DNA of 64,000 nt from Chitinophaga pinensis (GCA_943369665.1 CALRNX020000003.1:6907-70906), one strand, 5' to 3'. Counted from the first letter of the stretch, positions 9,985 through 19,202 are shown. Program-made: numbers and translations. The notes: a model not told the origin generated them from the sequence alone.

Positions 9985-11919
9985 CTATTTTATTGCGTGA
10001 TTCTTTATTTCTTCCACCACTTCCGGATCCAATAAGGTGGTTGTATCGCCCAGGTTTGTTGTTTCACCTTCGGCAATTTTGCGTAAAATTCTGCGCATAA
10101 TTTTACCACTTCGGGTTTTGGGCAAACCTTTTACAAATTGAATTTTGTCGGGTTTGGCAATAGGGCCAATAATGCGTGATACGGTTTGGATGATATCCTG
10201 GCGGGCTAAGTTTTCATCCATTTTCATTCCATCATAAATTATATAAGCATATATGCCTTGTCCTTTAATATCGTGCGGATATCCCACTACCGCACTTTCC
10301 ACAACACCGCTATGCATGTTTATGGCATTTTCAACCTCAGCAGTTCCAATGCGGTGTCCGCTTACGTTTAATACATCATCTACACGGCCTGTAATTCTGT
10401 AATTGCCATCTTCATCACGTAAGCACCCATCGCCTGTAAAATACATGTTTTCGTAGGTTGCAAAGTAGGTTGTGCGACAACGTTCGTGATCACCGTAGGT
10501 GGTTCTGATAATGCCGGGCCAAGGCATTTTAATGCATAAATTACCACTTACCGAATTACCCATAACTTCTTTTCCATTTTCATCTAGCAATACCGGGAAT
10601 ACTCCCGGCAAAGGCAATGTAGCATGTGCCGGTTTTTGTGGAGTGACACCGGCCAGGTTTGAGATCATCGTTGCACCAGTTTCGGTTTGCCACCAGGTAT
10701 CTACCACTGGGCATTTTCCTTTTCCAATGTTTTGATGGTACCAGTGCCATGCTTCTTCGTTGATGGGTTCACCCACCGAACCGATTACTTTTAATGAACT
10801 CAGATCCTTATTGTTCACATATTCCAATCCAAAACCCATTAAACTGCGAATTGCCGTTGGAGCGGTATACATGATATTTACTTTGTGTTTGTCTACAATT
10901 TCCCAGAACCTACCGGCATCAGGCCATGTAGGAATACCTTCAAACATTAAACTAGTGGCACCCGCACTCAGTGGGCCGTACAAGATATAACTATGACCGG
11001 TTATCCATCCGATATCTGCTGTACAAAAATGGATTTGTCCGGGTTGGTACTGAAACACATTCACAAAGGTGTAGTTTGCCCATATCATATAACCGGCTTG
11101 TGTATGTACCACGCCTTTGGGTTTTCCGGTTGAACCGGAAGTGTATAGGATAAACAAAGGATCTTCTGCATCCATTGCTACTGCCGGAAACGAAACTTTC
11201 CCATCTTTTTCAACCTGGTGTTCGGCATATTCCATTTCGTCTTCCCACCAAACGTCTCTTCCTTTGATCATTGAAACAGGTGTGCGTGTACGTGTATATA
11301 CGATTACTTTTTTGACTACTTTGTTTCCAATGAGTGCATCATCGATCACACTTTTTAAGGGAATATCTTTATTCCCCCTGAAAGCACCATCGCAGGTAAT
11401 GATAAATTCAGCCTTGGCATCTTCAAGCCTGTCAGCAATGCTTTGTGCGGAGAATCCCCCAAAGACAACTGAATGAATGGCTCCTACACGTGCACAACCC
11501 AAAACCGCATAAGCAAGTTCCGGAATCATTCCCATGTATATGCAAACCCGGTCCCCCTTTTTTACACCAAGGTTTGTAAGCATTTGCGCAACCTGGCATA
11601 CACGTTTGTGTAATCGATTGTATGTTACAACACGGGTACGTTCTTCAGGATTATTGGGTTCCCAGATAATAGCAGCTTCTTCACCGCGTGTTTCCAAATG
11701 CCTGTCGATGCAATTTTCGGTGATGTTTAACTTGGCTCCTTGGAACCATTCAATTTTTGGCTCCTTAAAGTTCCACTCTAATACTTTGTCCCATTTTTTG
11801 TGCCATGTAAAATGTTCGGCAATATTACCCCAGAATGCTTCCGGATTTTCAAAGCTTGCTTGGTAAGCTTCTTTGTACTGTTCTATGCTTTTTATTTGAT
11901 ATGGATATGACATATTCAT
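9985..11919 (-). CDS. acs: Acetyl-CoA synthetase (AMP-forming)
   Basis: 644 aa. Start is typical of Acs (YKEAYQASFENPEAFW). AMP-binding motif YTSGSTGKPKGV. C-terminal PKTRSGKIMRR. Confidence 0.95.
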   Translation of the reverse strand: MNMSYPYQIKSIEQYKEAYQASFENPEAFWGNIAEHFTWHKKWDKVLEWNFKEPKIEWFQGAKLNITENCIDRHLETRGEEAAIIWEPNNPEERTRVVTYNRLHKRVCQVAQMLTNLGVKKGDRVCIYMGMIPELAYAVLGCARVGAIHSVVFGGFSAQSIADRLEDAKAEFIITCDGAFRGNKDIPLKSVIDDALIGNKVVKKVIVYTRTRTPVSMIKGRDVWWEDEMEYAEHQVEKDGKVSFPAVAMDAEDPLFILYTSGSTGKPKGVVHTQAGYMIWANYTFVNVFQYQPGQIHFCTADIGWITGHSYILYGPLSAGATSLMFEGIPTWPDAGRFWEIVDKHKVNIMYTAPTAIRSLMGFGLEYVNNKDLSSLKVIGSVGEPINEEAWHWYHQNIGKGKCPVVDTWWQTETGATMISNLAGVTPQKPAHATLPLPGVFPVLLDENGKEVMGNSVSGNLCIKMPWPGIIRTTYGDHERCRTTYFATYENMYFTGDGCLRDEDGNYRITGRVDDVLNVSGHRIGTAEVENAINMHSGVVESAVVGYPHDIKGQGIYAYIIYDGMKMDENLARQDIIQTVSRIIGPIAKPDKIQFVKGLPKTRSGKIMRRILRKIAEGETTNLGDTTTLLDPEVVEEIKNHAIK

Positions 11920-11980
11920 TGTGGTTTAAATGTTCAATACGAATGTATAGTGTGTTCAATTTAAAACTAAACAGATTATT

Positions 11981-12018
11981 GCTAAATTAGTATAGTTATG
12001 CTAAATATGTATAGCTAT
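11981..12018. repeat. Tandem 19-bp direct repeat in the acs / IS1-like divergent intergenic region
   Basis: GCTAAATTAGTATAGTTAT (11981-11999) is immediately followed by GCTAAATATGTATAGCTAT (12000-12018), 16/19 identical. The core [AT][AT]GTATAG also occurs at 11943-11950. Confidence 0.7.
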
Positions 12019-12035
12019 GTTTTTATTTTTACATT

Positions 12036-12461
12036 ATGGAAACAATTAACTGTCCAAAATGCAAAAGTGAGAATATCAATAAAAGTGGCTTTGCAAAAGG
12101 GCGTCAGCGATTTTTGTGTAAAGACTGCAATTACTTTTTTTCGGTAATGAAAGAGGGTAAAAATATTGATGACTATTATGTCATCAAGGCTCTTCAATTG
12201 TATATCGAAGGGGTAAGCTTAAGAGAAATAGAACGATTGATAGGAGTGAGTCATGTTTCGGTAATGAACTGGGTGAAGAAGTTTAATTTGAAAGCACCCA
12301 AAAACAGTGATTATTATCCAACGTATAAAGTAATGCAACACGATGAATTGATAAGCTTTTTGAAGAATAGGGATAATACCAGAAATGCGGGAATGATTAT
12401 TACTGAATTGGGAGATAAATTTATGCTGATAAAATGGGAACGTTTAAAAGGTAAAAAGTAG
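12036..12461 (+). CDS. IS1-family transposase-like Zn-ribbon + HTH protein; apparently truncated, with no complete DDE domain
   Basis: CPKC...CKDC zinc ribbon and an HTH (LREIERLIGVSHVSVMNWVKKF) as in InsA-type N-termini. VMQHDELISF resembles the first catalytic-Asp block of IS1 transposases, but the ORF stops about 35 aa later. I saw no flanking terminal inverted repeats. Confidence 0.6.
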   Translation: METINCPKCKSENINKSGFAKGRQRFLCKDCNYFFSVMKEGKNIDDYYVIKALQLYIEGVSLREIERLIGVSHVSVMNWVKKFNLKAPKNSDYYPTYKVMQHDELISFLKNRDNTRNAGMIITELGDKFMLIKWERLKGKK

Positions 12462-12557
12462 CTTAAAACTATACTGTTGAGCAATTGAATAGGTGGTATC
12501 AAAATGTTGCCAAAATATGTTGTGAAATTCGTTCATCAACATTTTAAATCATACAAC

Positions 12558-13958
12558 ATGAAAAAACATTTATTCAGTGCCATTATGATTGGCTTGTTTG
12601 CTCAATCGGGTATACACGCACAGGGTACCGACAACTACGGTGCAGGTTTAAAACTTAATCTGGATACCAGCGGAAAAAAATACGTGAGATTTATAACGTG
12701 GCATCAGGTATGGTTAAGGCATAATGATAATAATCCCGGATCAACCATTAATGGAGATGCAAGCAATAGTCAATGGGATATGAGTTTACGCAGGTCGCGT
12801 TTTTTAATATATTCACAAATAAATCCCAACTTTTTAATTGTTACACATTTTGGTATAAACAATGCCAATCAGGTATCGGGAGGAGTAAATGGAATTGATG
12901 CAAAAAAGCCTCAATTGTTTATGCACGATGCTTATGTTGAACATCGTATTTTCAAAGATCATTTGAGTATTGGTGCCGGGCTTCATTACTGGCAGGGTCC
13001 TTCACGCATGAGTAGTGCGTCAACGTTAAATTTCCTGGCTATTGATGCACCTATTTTTAACTGGCAAAATATAGATGCTTCCGATCAGTTTGCCCGTCAG
13101 TATGGAGTATTTGCCAAAGGAAAGCTGCTTAAAAACAAACGAATTGATTACCGTGCGAGCATCAATTTTCCATATGCAATGGCCAAAGGAACTGCATTGA
13201 CAGTACTTGATACCACTGCCGCTAAAAATGGCGTACAAATAGCCAATTACAAGGGTGGAGGGCAGCCTAAGAATGCATTTCAGGGTTATTTTCAATACCA
13301 GTTTTTTGATATCGAGAACAATTTACTTCCCTATACCGTTGGAACGTATTTGGGAACTAAAAAAGTTTTTAATATAGGTGCCGGGTTTTATTCTGCAGCT
13401 GATGTAATGTGGAGTGCAAAACAAAATACTACAACAGGCAAATGGGACACAGTAACGAGTAATCAATTGTTTTTTTCGGCCGATGTGTTTTTGGATTTGC
13501 CACTCAAGTATAAGAATATGGCGGTTACGTTTTATGGCGTGTATAACCGTTTTGATATGGGGCCCAATTATGTCAGAAATATTGGTATAGATAATCCTGC
13601 TAATGGAACCATTGCCAGTCAGGCTTCTTATAATGGTTCAGGAAACACGATGCCTATAATTGGTACAGGAAATATTTTTTATGCACAAGCCGGATTGTTA
13701 CTTCCCAAAATGAAGAGTGTGGGAAGGTTACAACCTTACGCTGCAATTAATTATTCGCAATTCGAAAGATTAAAGGACGATGTGATAACGCCAGATTTTG
13801 GTGTTAATTGGTTCCTTAATGGGCATTCGGCAAAGCTTACGTTTAATTATCGTATGCGTCCGGTTTATAAATATGCGGATACTAGCAAACGTTATGGCGA
13901 TGTCGTATATGACTCACGTAAGGGTGAATTTGCCGTTCAATTTCAGATCTATTTATAG
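12558..13958 (+). CDS. Outer-membrane beta-barrel porin-like protein
   Basis: Trimmed to the ATG at 12558, giving the signal peptide MKKHLFSAIMIGLFAQSGIHAQ. Aromatic/Gly-rich alternating pattern. C-terminal beta-strand FAVQFQIYL. Confidence 0.6.
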   Translation: MKKHLFSAIMIGLFAQSGIHAQGTDNYGAGLKLNLDTSGKKYVRFITWHQVWLRHNDNNPGSTINGDASNSQWDMSLRRSRFLIYSQINPNFLIVTHFGINNANQVSGGVNGIDAKKPQLFMHDAYVEHRIFKDHLSIGAGLHYWQGPSRMSSASTLNFLAIDAPIFNWQNIDASDQFARQYGVFAKGKLLKNKRIDYRASINFPYAMAKGTALTVLDTTAAKNGVQIANYKGGGQPKNAFQGYFQYQFFDIENNLLPYTVGTYLGTKKVFNIGAGFYSAADVMWSAKQNTTTGKWDTVTSNQLFFSADVFLDLPLKYKNMAVTFYGVYNRFDMGPNYVRNIGIDNPANGTIASQASYNGSGNTMPIIGTGNIFYAQAGLLLPKMKSVGRLQPYAAINYSQFERLKDDVITPDFGVNWFLNGHSAKLTFNYRMRPVYKYADTSKRYGDVVYDSRKGEFAVQFQIYL

Positions 13959-13976: not shown

Positions 13977-15509
13977 ATGTATATGGAAAATTCAAACAAC
14001 AACACACAAAGTATTGCCAAAGTGATAGGAGCATCTTCACTTGGGACGCTTATTGAATGGTACGATTTTTATATTTTCGGGAGTTTGGCGGTTATTATCG
14101 GCAAGCAACTTTTTCCGAGTGATGCAGGGGCTTCTGCATTGATTAATACATTAGCGATTTTTGCCGCGGGCTTTATCGTAAGACCATTTGGGGCACTTGT
14201 ATTTGGTCGATTAGGAGATTTAATAGGTCGTAAATCTACATTTTTATTAACGCTTGTATTAATGGGTGGGTCTACGTTTTTAATAGGACTCATTCCTTCA
14301 TATGCTACTATTGGTTACGCAGCTCCCATTCTGGTGCTCATTTTACGCCTCATACAAGGACTTGCATTGGGAGGTGAATACGGAGGAGCGGCAACCTATG
14401 TGGCCGAACATGCACCTCCGGGCAAAAGAGGTTTTTTTACAAGCTGGATTCAAACTACAGCAACGCTTGGATTGTTTTTGTCGTTGGGTGTTATTGTGAG
14501 TGCCAAAAATTTTCTTGGTGCTGAAGCCTTTAATGATTGGGGGTGGCGCATTCCGTTTTTGATTTCAATTCTACTTGTTATTGTATCGGTGTATATCCGT
14601 TTGAAAATGCATGAATCACCTTTGTTTAGTAAATTGAAAAAGGAAGGAAATATTTCAAAAAATCCATTGAAAGAGAGTTTCAGTCATAAGGTAAATTTCA
14701 AGATGGTTTTGCTTGCATTGTTTGGGGCAACGATGGGACAAGGTGTAATTTGGTACACAGGTCAGTTTTACGCCCAATCCTTTTTAGAAAATACTGTTAA
14801 ATTAGATTTCAATGAATCCCGCTATATATTACTATGGGCTATTTTATTTGCAACACCGTTTTTTATCGTATTTGGTAGTTGGAGCGATAAGGTAGGAAGA
14901 AAGTGGATTATGCTCTCAGGGATGTTGCTGGGTATTATTTTTTACCGCCCCATCTACCAATATTTTATTGACGCTACAAACGTTTCTGAGTTTCAAAAAA
15001 CAAGTTTGGTAACCGCTGCTGAACCTCAAATAAAACGTGAACTGATTGCTGGAAAATCGGATTCGCTTATTACAACCAAAACACTTAAAACATTAGAAGA
15101 TGGGACTACCTTTAAGGAGGTTATGGTCGATACGGTATATGCAGATATGACTATTGGTCATGGCAAAACAACGTATATTGATAAGACATTATCGCAACAT
15201 ACTTTTTGGCTCTTTGTGTTCTTGGTGTTTGTACAAATACTTTTTGTGACGATGGTATACGGACCGATAGCGGCTTTTTTGGTTGAGTTGTTTCCAACCA
15301 AAATAAGGTATACATCAATGTCGCTGCCTTATCATATTGGTAATGGTGTGTTTGGAGGATTGGTGCCTTTTATAGCTACTCTTATTGCCAGTTTTAGTGG
15401 TTCTACACCATTATCGGGTTTGTGGTATCCAATCGGAATTGCAACGGCATCATTTATTATTGGGGCAGTATATATTAACAATAAAATTGATAAAAACGTA
15501 AACGATTAA
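13977..15509 (+). CDS. MFS transporter, metabolite:H+ symporter (MHS)-like
   Basis: 510 aa. N-terminus LIEWYDFYIFGSLA and loop motif GRLGDLIGRK are typical of the MHS subfamily (ProP/KgtP-like). Contains an extra hydrophilic insert of about 80 aa. Confidence 0.85.
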   Translation: MYMENSNNNTQSIAKVIGASSLGTLIEWYDFYIFGSLAVIIGKQLFPSDAGASALINTLAIFAAGFIVRPFGALVFGRLGDLIGRKSTFLLTLVLMGGSTFLIGLIPSYATIGYAAPILVLILRLIQGLALGGEYGGAATYVAEHAPPGKRGFFTSWIQTTATLGLFLSLGVIVSAKNFLGAEAFNDWGWRIPFLISILLVIVSVYIRLKMHESPLFSKLKKEGNISKNPLKESFSHKVNFKMVLLALFGATMGQGVIWYTGQFYAQSFLENTVKLDFNESRYILLWAILFATPFFIVFGSWSDKVGRKWIMLSGMLLGIIFYRPIYQYFIDATNVSEFQKTSLVTAAEPQIKRELIAGKSDSLITTKTLKTLEDGTTFKEVMVDTVYADMTIGHGKTTYIDKTLSQHTFWLFVFLVFVQILFVTMVYGPIAAFLVELFPTKIRYTSMSLPYHIGNGVFGGLVPFIATLIASFSGSTPLSGLWYPIGIATASFIIGAVYINNKIDKNVND

Positions 15510-15534: not shown

Positions 15535-15789
15535 ATGAATACAATTAAAAAAATGTTGGGACTTGTATGGATATTATTAGCCCCATCCCTTGTTATATTT
15601 ATGATCATGCAAGCCATCGAAAAAGTGGCTAATGCTGCTGAGGGCATTGCGCGTACCAATACCCTTTTGCAATGGTCAATTATCATCATTATTTTTATTC
15701 CTATCTGTATCGGATTGGCCATATTTGGTTTATATGCCTTAAAAGGGGAGTATACCCAATTGCCCGAGAGTTCGGACGAGATCTATTAA
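15535..15789 (+). CDS. Small integral membrane protein (84 aa), unknown function
   Basis: Two or three hydrophobic helices. Follows the MFS gene by 25 nt and precedes a strong terminator. Confidence 0.55.
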   Translation: MNTIKKMLGLVWILLAPSLVIFMIMQAIEKVANAAEGIARTNTLLQWSIIIIIFIPICIGLAIFGLYALKGEYTQLPESSDEIY

Positions 15790-15805
15790 AAATCGCCTTT
15801 TCTGT

Positions 15806-15846
15806 AAAGCCCTCTTTTGCCAATAAAAGAGGGCTTTATTGTTTTG
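15806..15846 (+). terminator. Intrinsic terminator ending the porin-MFS-small ORF unit
   Basis: AAAGCCCTCTTTT-GCCAAT-AAAAGAGGGCTTT, a 13-bp stem, followed by ATTGTTTTG. Confidence 0.8.
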
Positions 15847-15898
15847 TCGAATAGTATTTTACAAAAAATGTTACATTTAAAATGTAAAACTTTCAACA

Positions 15899-16120
15899 AT
15901 GATCAATAACAAAAAGCAGAAAAATGTCATGCTGAGCATTTTACTCATGCTGTTGTTTTCGTATCCTATTATTACCATATTTAATAAAGTCGGTTTTGTT
16001 AAATATGTACCTGTTTTGTATTTGTATGTGGCTGTTGTGTGGGTGTTTGCATTATTGTTGTTATTTATATCAGCAGAGGTAAAACCTTTTAAGAAAACAA
16101 AGAAAAACGAAGATGGGTAA
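15899..16120 (+). CDS. Small two-TM membrane protein (73 aa) translationally coupled to the symporter-kinase
   Basis: Two hydrophobic helices. Its stop TAA (16118-16120) lies inside the next gene, whose ATG is at 16113, an 8-nt overlap. Confidence 0.6.
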   Translation: MINNKKQKNVMLSILLMLLFSYPIITIFNKVGFVKYVPVLYLYVAVVWVFALLLLFISAEVKPFKKTKKNEDG

Positions 16121-18824
16121 CAGCGTCATTATTCTTTGCGCTTTTTTATACTTGTTGTTATTGTTTGGCGTGGCTTACTATGCCGAGTACCGCTTGAAAA
16201 AAGGCAAAAGCATCATCAATAATGCCTATGTGTATGCCTTATCACTTAGCGTGTACTGCACCGCCTGGACTTATTACGGGAGCGTTGGCCGTGCCACGAC
16301 CAATGGAATTGAGTTTGCCACGATTTATATCGGGCCTACAATTATGGCTGTTTTGTTTATTCCGTTATTGCGTAAAATAATCAGGATAACCAAAACGCAA
16401 CGGATCAATAGTATTGCCGATTTTATTTCCACAAGGTATGGTAAAAATGCAATACTTGCGGCTGTGGTCAGCTTGTTTTGTATTATGGGTGTGCTGCCTT
16501 ATATCGCATTGCAGTTAAAAGCAATCACCCTAAGTTGTAATATCTTAATAGGGACTACTGCGCCAGCATCTTTTTTGAATGATAATACACTTTATATCAC
16601 CTTGGTATTGGCTTTGTTTATTATCATGTTTGGAACGCGTTCTGTGGATGCAACTGAAAAGCATGAAGGATTAGTTGCTGCAGTCGCTTTTGAATCTATT
16701 GTAAAGCTTATTGCATTTATTGCTGCCGGTTTGTTTGTGACGTATGGAGTATTTAATGGCTTTGGTGATATTTTTAAACAAACGGTAGAGCGTTCCGAAT
16801 TTCAAAAGTTGTTTACTTTAGGTGGTCAACATCCCGAGATGGGGTGGTTTTCTTCCATTTTATTATCAATGATGGCTGTGCTTTTTTTGCCCCGTCAGTT
16901 TCAGGTAGGAGTGGTCGAAAATATTAACGAGTACCATTTGAAAAAAGCAGTTTGGCTGTTTCCTCTTTACCTTTTTATCATGAATCTTTTTGTGATCCCG
17001 ATCGCATTTGGAGGTAAGCTACTTTTTCAGGACAGTCAGATTAATCCGGATACTTTTGTGTTGGCCATACCACAATTTTTCAATAAAGATGAATTAAGTT
17101 TATTTGTTTTTATTGGTGGTTTTTCGGCTGCGGCAAGCATGATTATTGTTGAAACAATAGCCTTGAGTACCATGGTGAGCAATAATATTGTAATGCCTCT
17201 ATTGTTTACACAAACTAATTTTAAAAGCAATATTGACCAGTCTATCCGGAAGTTTATTCTTTACATCAGGCGTTTAAGTATTGTACTCATTTTATTGTTG
17301 GCTTATATATACGATAAATCTGTTGGCGAATATTTTTCACTGGTGTCAATCGGGTTGGTTTCTTTTACGGCCGTTGCCCAATTTGCTCCTGCTATTATAG
17401 GTGGTATCTATTGGAAAACGGCTTCTAAAAATGGTGCACTCATCGGTATTCTTATTGGATTTATGGTGTGGTTTTATACCCTTATTGTACCTTCTATTGC
17501 CAGTGCACATATTATTAGCAATGATTTGATTATAAACGGTCCTTGGGGAATAGGATGGTTAAAACCAACAGCGTTGTTTGGATTGTCGGGATTTGATTTG
17601 ATCACCCATGGTTTGTTTTGGAGTTTGCTGTTAAATTGTATTTGTTATTTTGTGTTTTCACTGTATAGCAAATTGAATGCACAGGAAGTTTATCAGGCCG
17701 AAGTTTTTGTGGATATTGATAAATATAATTCACCCGAAAGTAATGTAATATGGCGAGGTACGGCTTATATGCCTGATCTATATTCTCTGCTACAGAATTT
17801 TTTGGGAAAAGACAGATCGGCTAACCTTATTCAAAGTTATGCCAACAGACATAAGATATCAATTGATTCAAAAGCCAAAGCGGATCCTCGTATTGTAAAT
17901 TTTGCTGAACGAATTTTGTCGGGAGTTATTGGTTCTTCTTCCGCCCGTATTATGGTAAGTTCGGTTACGAAAGAAGAGGAGTTGAGTTTAAACGAGGTGT
18001 TTAAAATTTTGCACGAGTCGCAACAGATGATTGAATTAAATAAGGAGCTTCGTAAAAAATCAATTGAGTTAACAAAAGCAACGGAGGAACTTAAGGAGGC
18101 TAATTATCAGTTAACTACTATGGATGAGCAGAAGGATGAGTTTTTATACACTGTTACACATGAACTCAGAACACCACTCACATCTATTCGTTCGCTCTCT
18201 GAAATTGTACACGATCACCCGGATTTAACCATTGATGAACGTCAACATTTTTTGAGTGCGGTTATTAAGGAGACCGAGCGGTTGAGTCATCTTATTTCTA
18301 CAGTTCTAAATTTAGAAAAATATGAAAGCGGGAAACAAAAACTCAATCTCGTATCATTTAATTTTTCAGATGTTGTATATGAGTTAACGGAGTCGTATAA
18401 ACTGCTGGCGGCCGAGAGAAAAATTGAACTCACCTTACATACTCCTAATAGCATGTTGTTGTTACATGCAGACAAAGATTTGTTGCAACAGGTTTTGGTA
18501 AATTTAATCAGCAATGCCATTAAGTTTACCTCTGAAGGAGGATTGATTAAAGTCATTGTGAGCGATCTGGGCGATGATATTCAGGTTTCGGTAACCGATA
18601 CAGGTAAAGGTATTGCCTTGGAATTGCATGAATTGATTTTTGACAAATTTTTCCAGGCAAAGAACCAAACTATTAAGAAACCTGAAGGAACGGGTTTGGG
18701 ATTGGCTATTTGCAAACGTATTATTGATATGCATAACGGTAAAATTTGGGTGGAGAGTGAGCCGGAAAAAGGTGCAAAATTTATCTTTACAATACCTAAC
18801 TTTGTGCGTGGGAAAACAGAATAG
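16113..18824 (+). CDS. Sensor histidine kinase with N-terminal sodium:solute symporter (SSS/SLC5) domain (CbrA/CrbS-like architecture, no receiver domain)
   Basis: 903 aa. The first roughly 520 aa are polytopic and SSS-like. Then a coiled-coil linker, H-box FLYTVTHELRTPLTSI, N-box LISNAIKFT, G1 DTGKGI and G2 GTGLGLAIC. Confidence 0.9.
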   Translation: MGNSVIILCAFLYLLLLFGVAYYAEYRLKKGKSIINNAYVYALSLSVYCTAWTYYGSVGRATTNGIEFATIYIGPTIMAVLFIPLLRKIIRITKTQRINSIADFISTRYGKNAILAAVVSLFCIMGVLPYIALQLKAITLSCNILIGTTAPASFLNDNTLYITLVLALFIIMFGTRSVDATEKHEGLVAAVAFESIVKLIAFIAAGLFVTYGVFNGFGDIFKQTVERSEFQKLFTLGGQHPEMGWFSSILLSMMAVLFLPRQFQVGVVENINEYHLKKAVWLFPLYLFIMNLFVIPIAFGGKLLFQDSQINPDTFVLAIPQFFNKDELSLFVFIGGFSAAASMIIVETIALSTMVSNNIVMPLLFTQTNFKSNIDQSIRKFILYIRRLSIVLILLLAYIYDKSVGEYFSLVSIGLVSFTAVAQFAPAIIGGIYWKTASKNGALIGILIGFMVWFYTLIVPSIASAHIISNDLIINGPWGIGWLKPTALFGLSGFDLITHGLFWSLLLNCICYFVFSLYSKLNAQEVYQAEVFVDIDKYNSPESNVIWRGTAYMPDLYSLLQNFLGKDRSANLIQSYANRHKISIDSKAKADPRIVNFAERILSGVIGSSSARIMVSSVTKEEELSLNEVFKILHESQQMIELNKELRKKSIELTKATEELKEANYQLTTMDEQKDEFLYTVTHELRTPLTSIRSLSEIVHDHPDLTIDERQHFLSAVIKETERLSHLISTVLNLEKYESGKQKLNLVSFNFSDVVYELTESYKLLAAERKIELTLHTPNSMLLLHADKDLLQQVLVNLISNAIKFTSEGGLIKVIVSDLGDDIQVSVTDTGKGIALELHELIFDKFFQAKNQTIKKPEGTGLGLAICKRIIDMHNGKIWVESEPEKGAKFIFTIPNFVRGKTE

Positions 18825-18830
18825 CACATA

Positions 18831-19202
18831 ATGAGTCAAGCGTATAAAATCCTTCTGGTTGATGATGATCCGTATATTTTAATGTCGCTGGAGTTTTTGA
18901 TGCGTAAAAGCGGATTTGAAGTAATGATAGCACGCAACGGAACAGAAACATTGGAGTTGTTGGAACAAAATATACCAGATGTGGTATTGTTGGACATTAT
19001 GATGCCTGATGTGGACGGATATGCAATTTGTGCCCATATTAAAAAGTCGAAAATACACCGAAACTGCAAAGTGGTTTTTCTGAGTGCAAAATCAAAAGAT
19101 GTTGATATTCAAAAGGGGCTTACTTTGGGAGCGGAGTTATATATAACCAAACCTTTTTCAAACAAGGATCTGGTGAATAAAATCACGGCTTTATTGGATT
19201 AA
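18831..19202 (+). CDS. Single-domain response regulator (receiver only)
   Basis: 123 aa. ILLVDDD, phospho-acceptor context VLLDIMMPDVDG, and conserved Lys in YITKPF. No output domain. Starts 6 nt after the kinase stop. Confidence 0.9.
   Translation: MSQAYKILLVDDDPYILMSLEFLMRKSGFEVMIARNGTETLELLEQNIPDVVLLDIMMPDVDGYAICAHIKKSKIHRNCKVVFLSAKSKDVDIQKGLTLGAELYITKPFSNKDLVNKITALLD

Follow-up and report, generated by a model that had tools for sequence, protein, structure and literature searches.

Background

Sensor kinases that carry a transporter-like domain of the SLC5 type have been studied in four systems, namely CbrA/B, CrbS/R (with RpuS/R), PrlS/R and one system in Halomonas, and all four end in a DNA-binding regulator (PMC7918813, PMC9100948). 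Control of acs by CrbS/CrbR is well documented (PMC5436829, PMC5715377). For CbrA, a structure obtained by cryo-electron microscopy and reported in a 2026 preprint displays 13 transmembrane (TM) helices in a LeuT fold, with the four-helix bundle of the STAC domain docked underneath and the small peptide CbrX bound to the SLC5 domain at TM3/TM8 (PMC13022988). Here, we describe a kinase of this type in a 64,000-nucleotide stretch of DNA from Chitinophaga pinensis (GCA_943369665.1 CALRNX020000003.1:6907-70906; "the window" denotes this whole stretch), where it is followed by a response regulator made up of a lone receiver domain. The acs gene lies 4.2 kb upstream of the kinase gene and is transcribed divergently from an intervening uptake operon.

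Our preferred reading, to which we give somewhat less than an even chance, is that the locus constitutes the signalling core of acetate/propionate uptake and activation in Bacteroidota, with the receiver acting on the acetate--CoA ligase Acs and a small zinc-ribbon/helix-turn-helix (HTH) protein, HTH141, handling transcription. Its members would comprise acs, a divergent set of genes for HTH141, a porin, an MFS symporter and a DUF6814 protein, and a separate unit encoding a mini-protein, the kinase and the receiver (Table 1). To our knowledge, an AMP-forming acyl-CoA synthetase is not among the targets described for response regulators.

A lone receiver linked to acyl-CoA synthetases

The receiver gene starts six bases after the stop codon of the kinase gene. 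Response_reg is the only Pfam domain of its product, with no AAA+, HTH_8 or other output domain, in agreement with an earlier annotation of the window made from the sequence alone (the sequence-only reading), which had described a 123-residue regulator lacking any output domain. The phospho-acceptor set is complete (D12/D13, D55, S85, Y104 and K107). Related loci were tabulated from open reading frames (ORFs) and BLAST matches, giving 84 in total (24 from Bacteroidota and 60 others), with acs called at an identity of at least 45%. A receiver-only gene is located within 600 nt of the kinase gene in 23 of the 24 Bacteroidota loci and within 3 kb of it in 53 of the 60 other loci, and about 70 loci from different phyla have such an output-less receiver. 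A maximum-likelihood tree was built from receiver domains, including those of the genome's other response regulators, and in it the kinase-linked receivers form one group apart from the latter (91/87). These results identify the lone receiver as the kinase's cognate partner.

At two loci of Chitinophagaceae (L019 and L021), the kinase gene is directly followed by one for a receiver (REC) fused in frame to a PrpE-like synthetase, yielding proteins of 762-767 aa. Over their first 122 residues, these proteins share 61-62% identity with the window receiver, and the best NCBIfam match of the remainder is propionate--CoA ligase (747 bits, short of the equivalog cutoff). Searching the database with the receiver part only revealed about 18 clusters, with more than 200 member sequences from several sources, that combine Response_reg, ACAS_N and AMP-binding domains; these clusters are 753-767 aa in length, plus one 504-aa fragment. 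The fused receivers are 52-67% identical to the window receiver, and both the phospho-acceptor residues (D11-13, D55 and K107) and the synthetase motifs are invariant among the fusions. In the tree, Bacteroidota receivers and fused receivers make up a supported clade (96/90), within which the subclade of the window receiver (98/92) contains eight free and nine fused receivers; on this basis, the fused receivers are judged to be close kin of the window protein.

Free receivers keep similar company: among the 22 Bacteroidota loci not truncated downstream, their genes lie immediately 5' of acs in 8 and of a PrpE-like gene in another 8, making 16 in all. This neighbourhood and the Rosetta-stone evidence of the fusions suggest that the receiver works with the synthetase, which would explain why no DNA-binding output is needed. 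Given the fusions and the receiver genes that directly precede acs or a PrpE-like gene, direct control of an acyl-CoA synthetase by the receiver appears to be the best-supported output, and the fusions put in question the transcriptional output that the sequence-only reading had assumed, as the output may not be gene expression. Tentatively, and with a confidence that stays rather well below even, we suggest that the lone receiver is the trans-acting form of a new class of response-regulator output, in which the phosphorylated receiver switches an Acs/PrpE-like synthetase directly. A literature search found no paper on receiver::acyl-CoA synthetase fusions.

The sensor kinase and its mini-protein

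Pfam identifies two domains in the kinase and no others, HisKA (PF00512) at residues 673-740 (E 7e-15) and HATPase_c (PF02518) at residues 787-895 (E 1e-32). The H-box HELRTPLTSI, THELRTPLTSI with the preceding T, occupies residues 683-692. The HExxT form of the H-box is the usual signature of bifunctional HisKA kinase/phosphatases, and its presence here fits such a bifunctional enzyme. The C-terminus follows 8 residues past HATPase_c, at residue 903, so the kinase has no receiver domain and is non-hybrid.

The family assignment rests on a structural match, because the Pfam models for SSF, PAS and STAC gave no match in the N-terminal 667 residues, even at E values up to 10. With HMMER, residues 6-616 match chain A of PDB entry 10ED (E 1e-76, 31% identity over 612 columns), a 606-aa chain titled 'histidine kinase' that is taken to be the SLC5-STAC part of Pseudomonas CbrA, i.e., the structure of PMC13022988. 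The N-terminal part has about 13 hydrophobic segments by hydropathy, neighbouring SSF transporters encoded within related loci give weak BLAST matches to residues 301-550, and a 65%-identical homologue carries a precomputed PF00474 match. Toward its end, the HMMER alignment pairs residues ~540-616 with ~500-589 of the CbrA chain, the STAC region, at moderate posterior values, and includes LSGVIGSSSARIMV in the kinase against LSGLMGPSVAQDMV in the CbrA chain. The interval from this putative STAC region to the H-box is a coiled coil of only about 55 residues.

Residues of the CbrA substrate pocket and Na2 site were mapped onto the kinase through the same alignment, and six of the nine are identical (Y48, W52, F68, Y72, F418 and K198). 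K198 is the counterpart of CbrA K196, which takes the position of the Na2 sodium and is presumed to act as carrier of the coupling proton (PMC13022988). A CrbS-type hybrid kinase of Azospirillum likewise has the CbrA-type pocket residues, and its sensor domain is 37% identical to that of the window kinase over 672 residues, placing the latter, by this measure, somewhat nearer the Azospirillum protein than CbrA (31%). Taken together, these comparisons describe a putative CbrX/CbrA-like "transceptor" with a 13-TM, LeuT-fold domain of the SLC5 type, the CbrA-type lysine at the Na2 site, a STAC bundle and a coiled coil that runs directly into the HisKA/HATPase module.

The sequence-only reading thus placed and typed the kinase correctly, including its H-box, and the match to 10ED_A together with HisKA/HATPase_c bears out the CbrA/CrbS-type architecture that it proposed. 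Its "full SSS/SLC5 domain" holds through the structural match, the hydropathy profile, the SSF BLAST matches and the PF00474 homologue, although the Pfam SSF model itself finds nothing. That the kinase lacks a receiver is likewise a fact, but as a contrast it applies to CrbS only, since CbrA has no receiver either; a further difference from both CbrA and CrbS, the absence of a PAS domain, had been overlooked.

Just 5' of the kinase gene is a mini-ORF that has 8 nt in common with it, the stop of the one overlapping the start of the other (ATGGGTAA), and whose product has two predicted TM segments. A homologous small ORF precedes or overlaps the kinase gene at 18 of the 24 Bacteroidota loci and at 30-55 of the 60 other loci, with homologues at the equivalent place from Bacteroidota to Paracoccus, and by eye the mini-proteins have a common (N)(F/Y)P...P.L(Y) pattern. 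No similarity was detected between the 73-aa sequence and PDB chains; by position, topology and coupling, and with no sequence match, the mini-protein is the counterpart of CbrX.

Distribution and the link to acs

The kinase is patchily distributed, being present in 6 of 41 close relatives. Within an even sample of 401 genomes from the phylum, 33 encode it at full length and matches occur in 19 of 180 genera. A wider scan with one genome per species recovered full-length relatives at 45-76% identity in Chitinophagales and Cytophagales, in many Beta- and Gammaproteobacteria (Thauera, Zoogloea, Accumulibacter, Aromatoleum, Hydrogenophaga and Thiocapsa), in Desulfobacterales and Chloroflexota, and on plasmids or secondary replicons of Paracoccus and Cupriavidus.

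In all six kinase-bearing close relatives, acs lies within 5 kb of the kinase gene, and 19 of the 24 Bacteroidota loci, as well as 18 of the 60 others, have it at a distance of no more than 7 kb, in several gene orders; at some loci, such as the P. denitrificans plasmid and that of Chryseosolibacter, there is no acs within 9-10 kb. The sequence-only reading had made its case for acs depend on synteny in related genomes, and because that synteny recurs, the link of the pair to acs stands. A PrpE-like paralogue is present in 10 loci, and ActP-type DUF4212+SSF transporters are encoded at loci of Proteobacteria. In Pontibacter litorisediminis (L020, 13137-16988), a PrpE-like paralogue and Acs share one open frame of 1283 aa, meaning that the two synthetases are fused in frame or that a stop codon was lost. 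As to function, the most robust inference is the link to the activation of short-chain carboxylates. The pair belongs to a widespread, uncharacterised branch of SLC5/STAC kinases, nearly always with a CbrX-like mini-gene 5' and a lone receiver 3'.

An operon found in Proteobacteria and Chloroflexota (L094, L030, L041 and L047) encodes a DUF294 protein, the mini-peptide, the kinase, the lone receiver and a membrane protein of about 700 aa. The last of these combines a PAS domain, a degenerate kinase-like module and a C-terminal RNase T-type exonuclease, and occurs in 39 of the 60 loci outside Bacteroidota. Starts and stops overlap within the cassette (e.g., L094, P. denitrificans PD1222 plasmid 1, 7203-14103), often with DUF4212+SSF transporters and acs upstream. 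The DUF294 gene encodes a CBS-nucleotidyltransferase, and in P. fluorescens the regulon of CrbS/R includes a DUF294 protein (PMC5715377). Neither the DUF294 nucleotidyltransferase nor the PAS/pseudo-kinase-RNase T protein was found in the genome that contains the window, and a literature search found no study on DUF294 or the exonuclease with acetate in this branch.

HTH141 and its tandem repeat

HTH141 scores 88 bits against the IS1 transposase model NF033558 (cutoff 100), covering model positions 1-122 of 199, and is publicly annotated as an "IS1 family transposase"; for this genome, the source annotation seems to begin the gene at an internal Met (104 aa, P0183). It occurs in a single copy in its genome. 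Homologues fall into more than 2300 clusters and are mostly 139-143 aa long among the 120 listed. In 49 sequences from several orders, 46 columns are invariant, including four cysteines, the HTH and a C-terminal TELGDKxMxIKW motif. An AlphaFold2 (AF2) model, with a predicted local distance difference test (pLDDT) score of 85, displays a zinc ribbon, a three-helix HTH and a small beta-alpha-beta-beta domain. A Foldseek search with this model returned nothing at E<=1e-3, the best weak matches being Lrp/AsnC-type regulators (E 8e-3, not significant). Regulators of this type combine an HTH with an effector domain. The possibility that HTH141 is a mobile IS1 element was rejected, as it has no DDE domain, is single copy, is syntenic across orders and is of uniform length.

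The distribution of HTH141 closely follows that of the kinase within one class. Its gene heads the locus throughout Chitinophagales and Cytophagales and heads the same seven-gene cluster in two isolates (Chryseosolibacter and Flavihumibacter). In the phylum sample, 21 genomes have the gene, and 20 of these also have the kinase, and there the HTH141 gene shares contig and strand with the kinase gene and precedes it by 1-7 kb. Of the Bacteroidia genomes with the kinase, 19 of 20 have the HTH141 gene, versus 1 of 368 kinase-less genomes of the sample; it also occurs in 5 of the 6 kinase-bearing close relatives, in 1 of 13 kinase-bearing genomes of other Bacteroidota classes, and in none of the 60 loci of other phyla. 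The single sampled genome with the HTH gene (52% identity) and no kinase has it at G373:C1:1242565-1242987. In another (G301:C23:10926-14949), the HTH gene is only about 0.9 kb 5' of the kinase gene, leaving no room for the porin and MFS genes.

Between acs and the HTH141 gene lies a tandem direct repeat, TTGCTAAATTAGTATAG TTA TGCTAAATATGTATAG, consisting of two 16-nt units with a 19-bp period and the unit consensus GCTAAwT-N3-TATAk. This repeat is conserved upstream of the HTH gene/porin operon in 20 Bacteroidota loci across orders. An exact search for the window's version gave no match in related loci, and a position weight matrix was needed; scanned with this matrix, the 3.54-Mb genome contains the repeat exactly once, and related loci usually have one site, always at the head of the porin-transporter operon.

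As a single-copy companion of the kinase behind a genome-unique repeat, HTH141 is a candidate local transcription factor, putatively a domesticated, IS1 InsA-like regulator of the uptake operon, and it probably regulates the divergent acs as well. Since HTH141 remains even with the receiver fused to the synthetase (L021), and is lacking where the pair occurs outside Bacteroidia, it would represent a separate, lineage-specific layer. The claim of the sequence-only reading that the route from signal to gene expression is not explained by the visible genes was, accordingly, too strong: a conserved, single-copy HTH protein with an operator-like repeat is present in the locus.

Remaining genes and transcription units

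The neighbourhood of acs, porin and MFS genes noted earlier was recovered in full, with the porin-like ORF and the MHS-type MFS gene located between acs and the kinase gene. Acs contains ACAS_N, AMP-binding and AMP-binding_C domains, and tblastn on the genome found acs to be single copy. The porin-like gene is kept at the equivalent position in 17 of the 24 Bacteroidota loci, and the MFS symporter gene is syntenic in 15 of them. A paralogue of the porin-like protein (38% identity) is encoded elsewhere in the genome, at C6:91670-92986, and adjoins another response-regulator gene (receiver C6:93104-93436). DUF6814, a membrane protein of about 80 aa, is always encoded directly 3' of the MHS-type MFS gene, in the window as in L012 (8814-9086), L096 and L098, and by analogy with the mini-protein that precedes the kinase, it may be a small transporter subunit.

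Downstream of the DUF6814 gene there is a strong hairpin resembling a terminator, with equivalents at the matching place in two related loci (L007 and L008); the mini-gene, kinase and receiver genes therefore probably form a transcription unit of their own, separate from that of HTH141, porin, MFS and DUF6814. Between the terminator and the kinase unit, 12 nt 5' of the mini-ORF, is a perfect 8-1-8 palindrome, TTACATTT-A-AAATGTAA (15871-15887), whose conservation in L007 and L008 is not obvious.

Table 1. Features of the acs-kinase locus, numbered from the first letter of the window.
Feature	Position	Strand	Length	Basis
acs, acetate--CoA ligase	9985..11919	(-)	644 aa	NF001208 941 bits, TIGR02188 925 bits
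Tandem direct repeat, operator-like, between acs and HTH gene	11979..12017	(+)	39 bp	Position weight matrix
HTH141, Zn-ribbon + HTH + small beta-alpha-beta-beta domain protein	12036..12461	(+)	141 aa	Zn_ribbon_InsA, HTH_28/23
Porin-like outer-membrane protein	12504..13958	(+)	484 aa	Weak ExtI porin match, E 2e-13
MHS-type MFS metabolite/H+ symporter	13977..15509	(+)	510 aa	TIGR00883 375 bits; Sugar_tr, MFS_1
DUF6814 small membrane protein	15535..15789	(+)	84 aa	PF20664 E 2e-29
Intrinsic-terminator-like hairpin, end of HTH-porin-MFS-DUF6814 unit	15804..15839	(+)		16-pair stem + T run
Two-TM mini-protein	15899..16120	(+)	73 aa	ORF + topology
SLC5-STAC (putative)-coiled coil-HisKA-HATPase_c sensor kinase	16113..18824	(+)	903 aa	ORF map, Pfam, PDB match
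Stand-alone CheY-like receiver	18831..19202	(+)	123 aa	Response_reg 7-118, E 1e-29

Proposed mechanism and competing explanations

In the mechanism that we propose, the SLC5 domain would bind or carry a short-chain carboxylate and report its availability or flux to the kinase, which would phosphorylate the receiver at D55. The phosphorylated receiver would then contact an AMP-forming acyl-CoA synthetase, here presumably Acs, the only member of the family in the genome, so that acetate activation would be tuned post-translationally by the receiver and not via DNA binding. The uptake operon, and probably the divergent acs, would be transcribed under HTH141 acting at the 39-bp tandem repeat.

Several points weigh against this proposal. 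All of the fusions join the receiver to the PrpE-like paralogue and none to Acs proper, and the genome studied here has no PrpE-like paralogue, though its nearest relatives have one. Its receiver was kept after the PrpE-like gene was lost, and therefore must have another target; Acs is the obvious candidate in this genome, by extrapolation from the fusions. Gene fusion, moreover, is evidence of functional coupling, not of the direction or mode of control, and an AF2 model of a natural REC::PrpE fusion has a disordered linker at residues 127-132 (pLDDT<50) and a predicted template-modelling score (pTM) of 0.64, and so lends no support to a fixed REC-enzyme interface. The pocket residues of the kinase mark the SLC5/STAC family rather than a substrate, leaving the ligand to be deduced from genomic context only. 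The other partners of the pair in Proteobacteria suggest that the receiver's target may not be universal, and a literature search found no study of this PAS-less kinase/lone-receiver branch.

Among the alternatives, we consider it unlikely that receiver and HTH141 form a split response regulator, with the phosphorylated receiver docking on HTH141 and the two together activating the porin-MFS operon and the divergent acs from the repeat. The idea has clear attractions: HTH141 is the sole DNA-binding protein of the locus and co-occurs almost perfectly with the kinase and receiver in Bacteroidia and in close relatives (19/20 and 5/6), its TELGDKxMxIKW-bearing C-terminal domain is strongly conserved, and the repeat overlaps the expected -33 region, as an activator site would. 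Yet the HTH141 gene is still present in L021, whose receiver is part of the synthetase fusion and whose fetched sequence showed no free receiver gene; 12 of 13 kinase-bearing genomes from other Bacteroidota classes lack HTH141, as do all 60 loci of other phyla, although the kinase/receiver pair is just as conserved there; and in one genome (G009) the HTH module and the kinase/receiver module are on different contigs. Its weakly Lrp/AsnC-like layout (E 8e-3, not significant) would, in a ligand-binding one-component regulator, call for no receiver at all.

We are similarly doubtful that the lone receiver, as the detached counterpart of the receiver in hybrid CrbS, serves only as a phosphate sink or modulator or as the opening step of a phosphorelay, with the real output residing in an unlinked LuxR/GerE-type regulator comparable to CrbR. 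None of the 24 Bacteroidota loci has a gene for a response-regulator transcription factor within 10 kb, although a REC-GerE regulator does lie directly 3' of the lone receiver in a few proteobacterial loci (L034, L055, L079 and L091), and CrbS-type relatives have a fused receiver and a LuxR-type partner (PMC7918813). The genome itself has about nine REC-GerE regulators and one stand-alone Hpt protein, but a phosphorelay through the latter was rejected, as stand-alone Hpt occurs in 30 of 41 relatives regardless of the kinase (6 of 41), the two distributions being unrelated. A detached CrbS-type receiver is not supported: the receiver of the Azospirillum hybrid has no detectable similarity to the window receiver or to anything encoded in the genome. 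Fusion to an enzyme would be unexpected for a mere phosphate sink. Finally, it seems highly improbable that the acs neighbourhood is incidental, with the pair sensing ionic strength (proposed for PrlS), an amino acid (as CbrA does) or redox, and controlling some other process. The substrate pocket is nearly the same as that of histidine-binding CbrA and some loci (the P. denitrificans plasmid and Chryseosolibacter) have no acs nearby, but the pocket is kept in the CrbS-type kinase too, so histidine is not specified, and linkage to acs or PrpE-like genes recurs in Bacteroidota, Betaproteobacteria and Chloroflexota in different gene orders, which is unlikely by chance.

Significance

If direct control of an Acs/PrpE-like synthetase by the receiver is correct, a transporter-like kinase would adjust the activity of the activating enzyme to the carboxylate supply outside the cell within seconds, through a receiver switch operating in parallel to, or instead of, the control of Acs by lysine acetylation, with a transposase-derived Zn-ribbon/HTH protein as the slower, transcriptional layer. 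Direct enzyme control would add a metabolic enzyme to the outputs of response regulators. The compact branch, with its mini-peptide, PAS-less kinase and lone receiver, spans at least four phyla, and its carriers include wastewater and soil organisms in which acetate uptake is central, such as Accumulibacter, Zoogloea, Thauera, Paracoccus and Cupriavidus. HTH141, in turn, would offer a clear example of a host regulator derived from the DNA-binding module of a transposase, complete with a candidate operator. Of the sequence-only reading as a whole, the kinase family and the link to acs endure, while the comparison with CbrA, the silence on PAS and the claim about the route need correction.

Comparison with known systems

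The closest likeness is to the CbrX-CbrA/CbrB system of Pseudomonas. Both have an SLC5-type sensor, in the window kinase with a putative STAC part, on a HisKA/HATPase module, a non-hybrid kinase and the Na2-site lysine (K196/K198), and both have a translationally coupled, two-TM mini-gene upstream, a resemblance of position and topology only. Unlike the window kinase, CbrA contains a PAS domain (PMC7918813). CbrB is an NtrC-type sigma-54 activator, whereas the partner here is a 123-aa receiver, and the context of histidine use and crcZ for CbrA is replaced here by one of acs, porin and MFS genes.

With CrbS/CrbR (= MxtR/ErdR) of Vibrio, Pseudomonas and Sinorhizobium, the locus has in common an SLC5/STAC kinase tied to acs and acetate (PMC5436829, PMC5715377, PMC9100948), although here the link to acs is known by gene neighbourhood only. 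CrbS, a hybrid kinase, contains a PAS domain as well as a fused receiver, neither of which is present in the window kinase, and CrbR is a LuxR-type DNA-binding protein, unlike the window partner, which lacks a DNA-binding domain. No REC-GerE gene occurs in any of the 24 Bacteroidota loci.

Single-domain response regulators such as CheY, DivK, CpdR and Spo0F act by protein-protein contact. The window protein resembles the CheY-like regulators in being a receiver only, with a complete phospho-acceptor set that includes the CheY-type Y104/K107, and differs from them in its suggested target, an AMP-forming acyl-CoA synthetase. HTH141, for its part, has the CxxC...CxxC zinc ribbon followed by a transposase-type HTH that characterises the N-terminus of IS1 InsA/transposase; unlike the IS1 protein, it has no DDE domain and is the product of a single-copy host gene at a fixed position, under strong purifying selection and with homologues of a uniform 139-143 aa.

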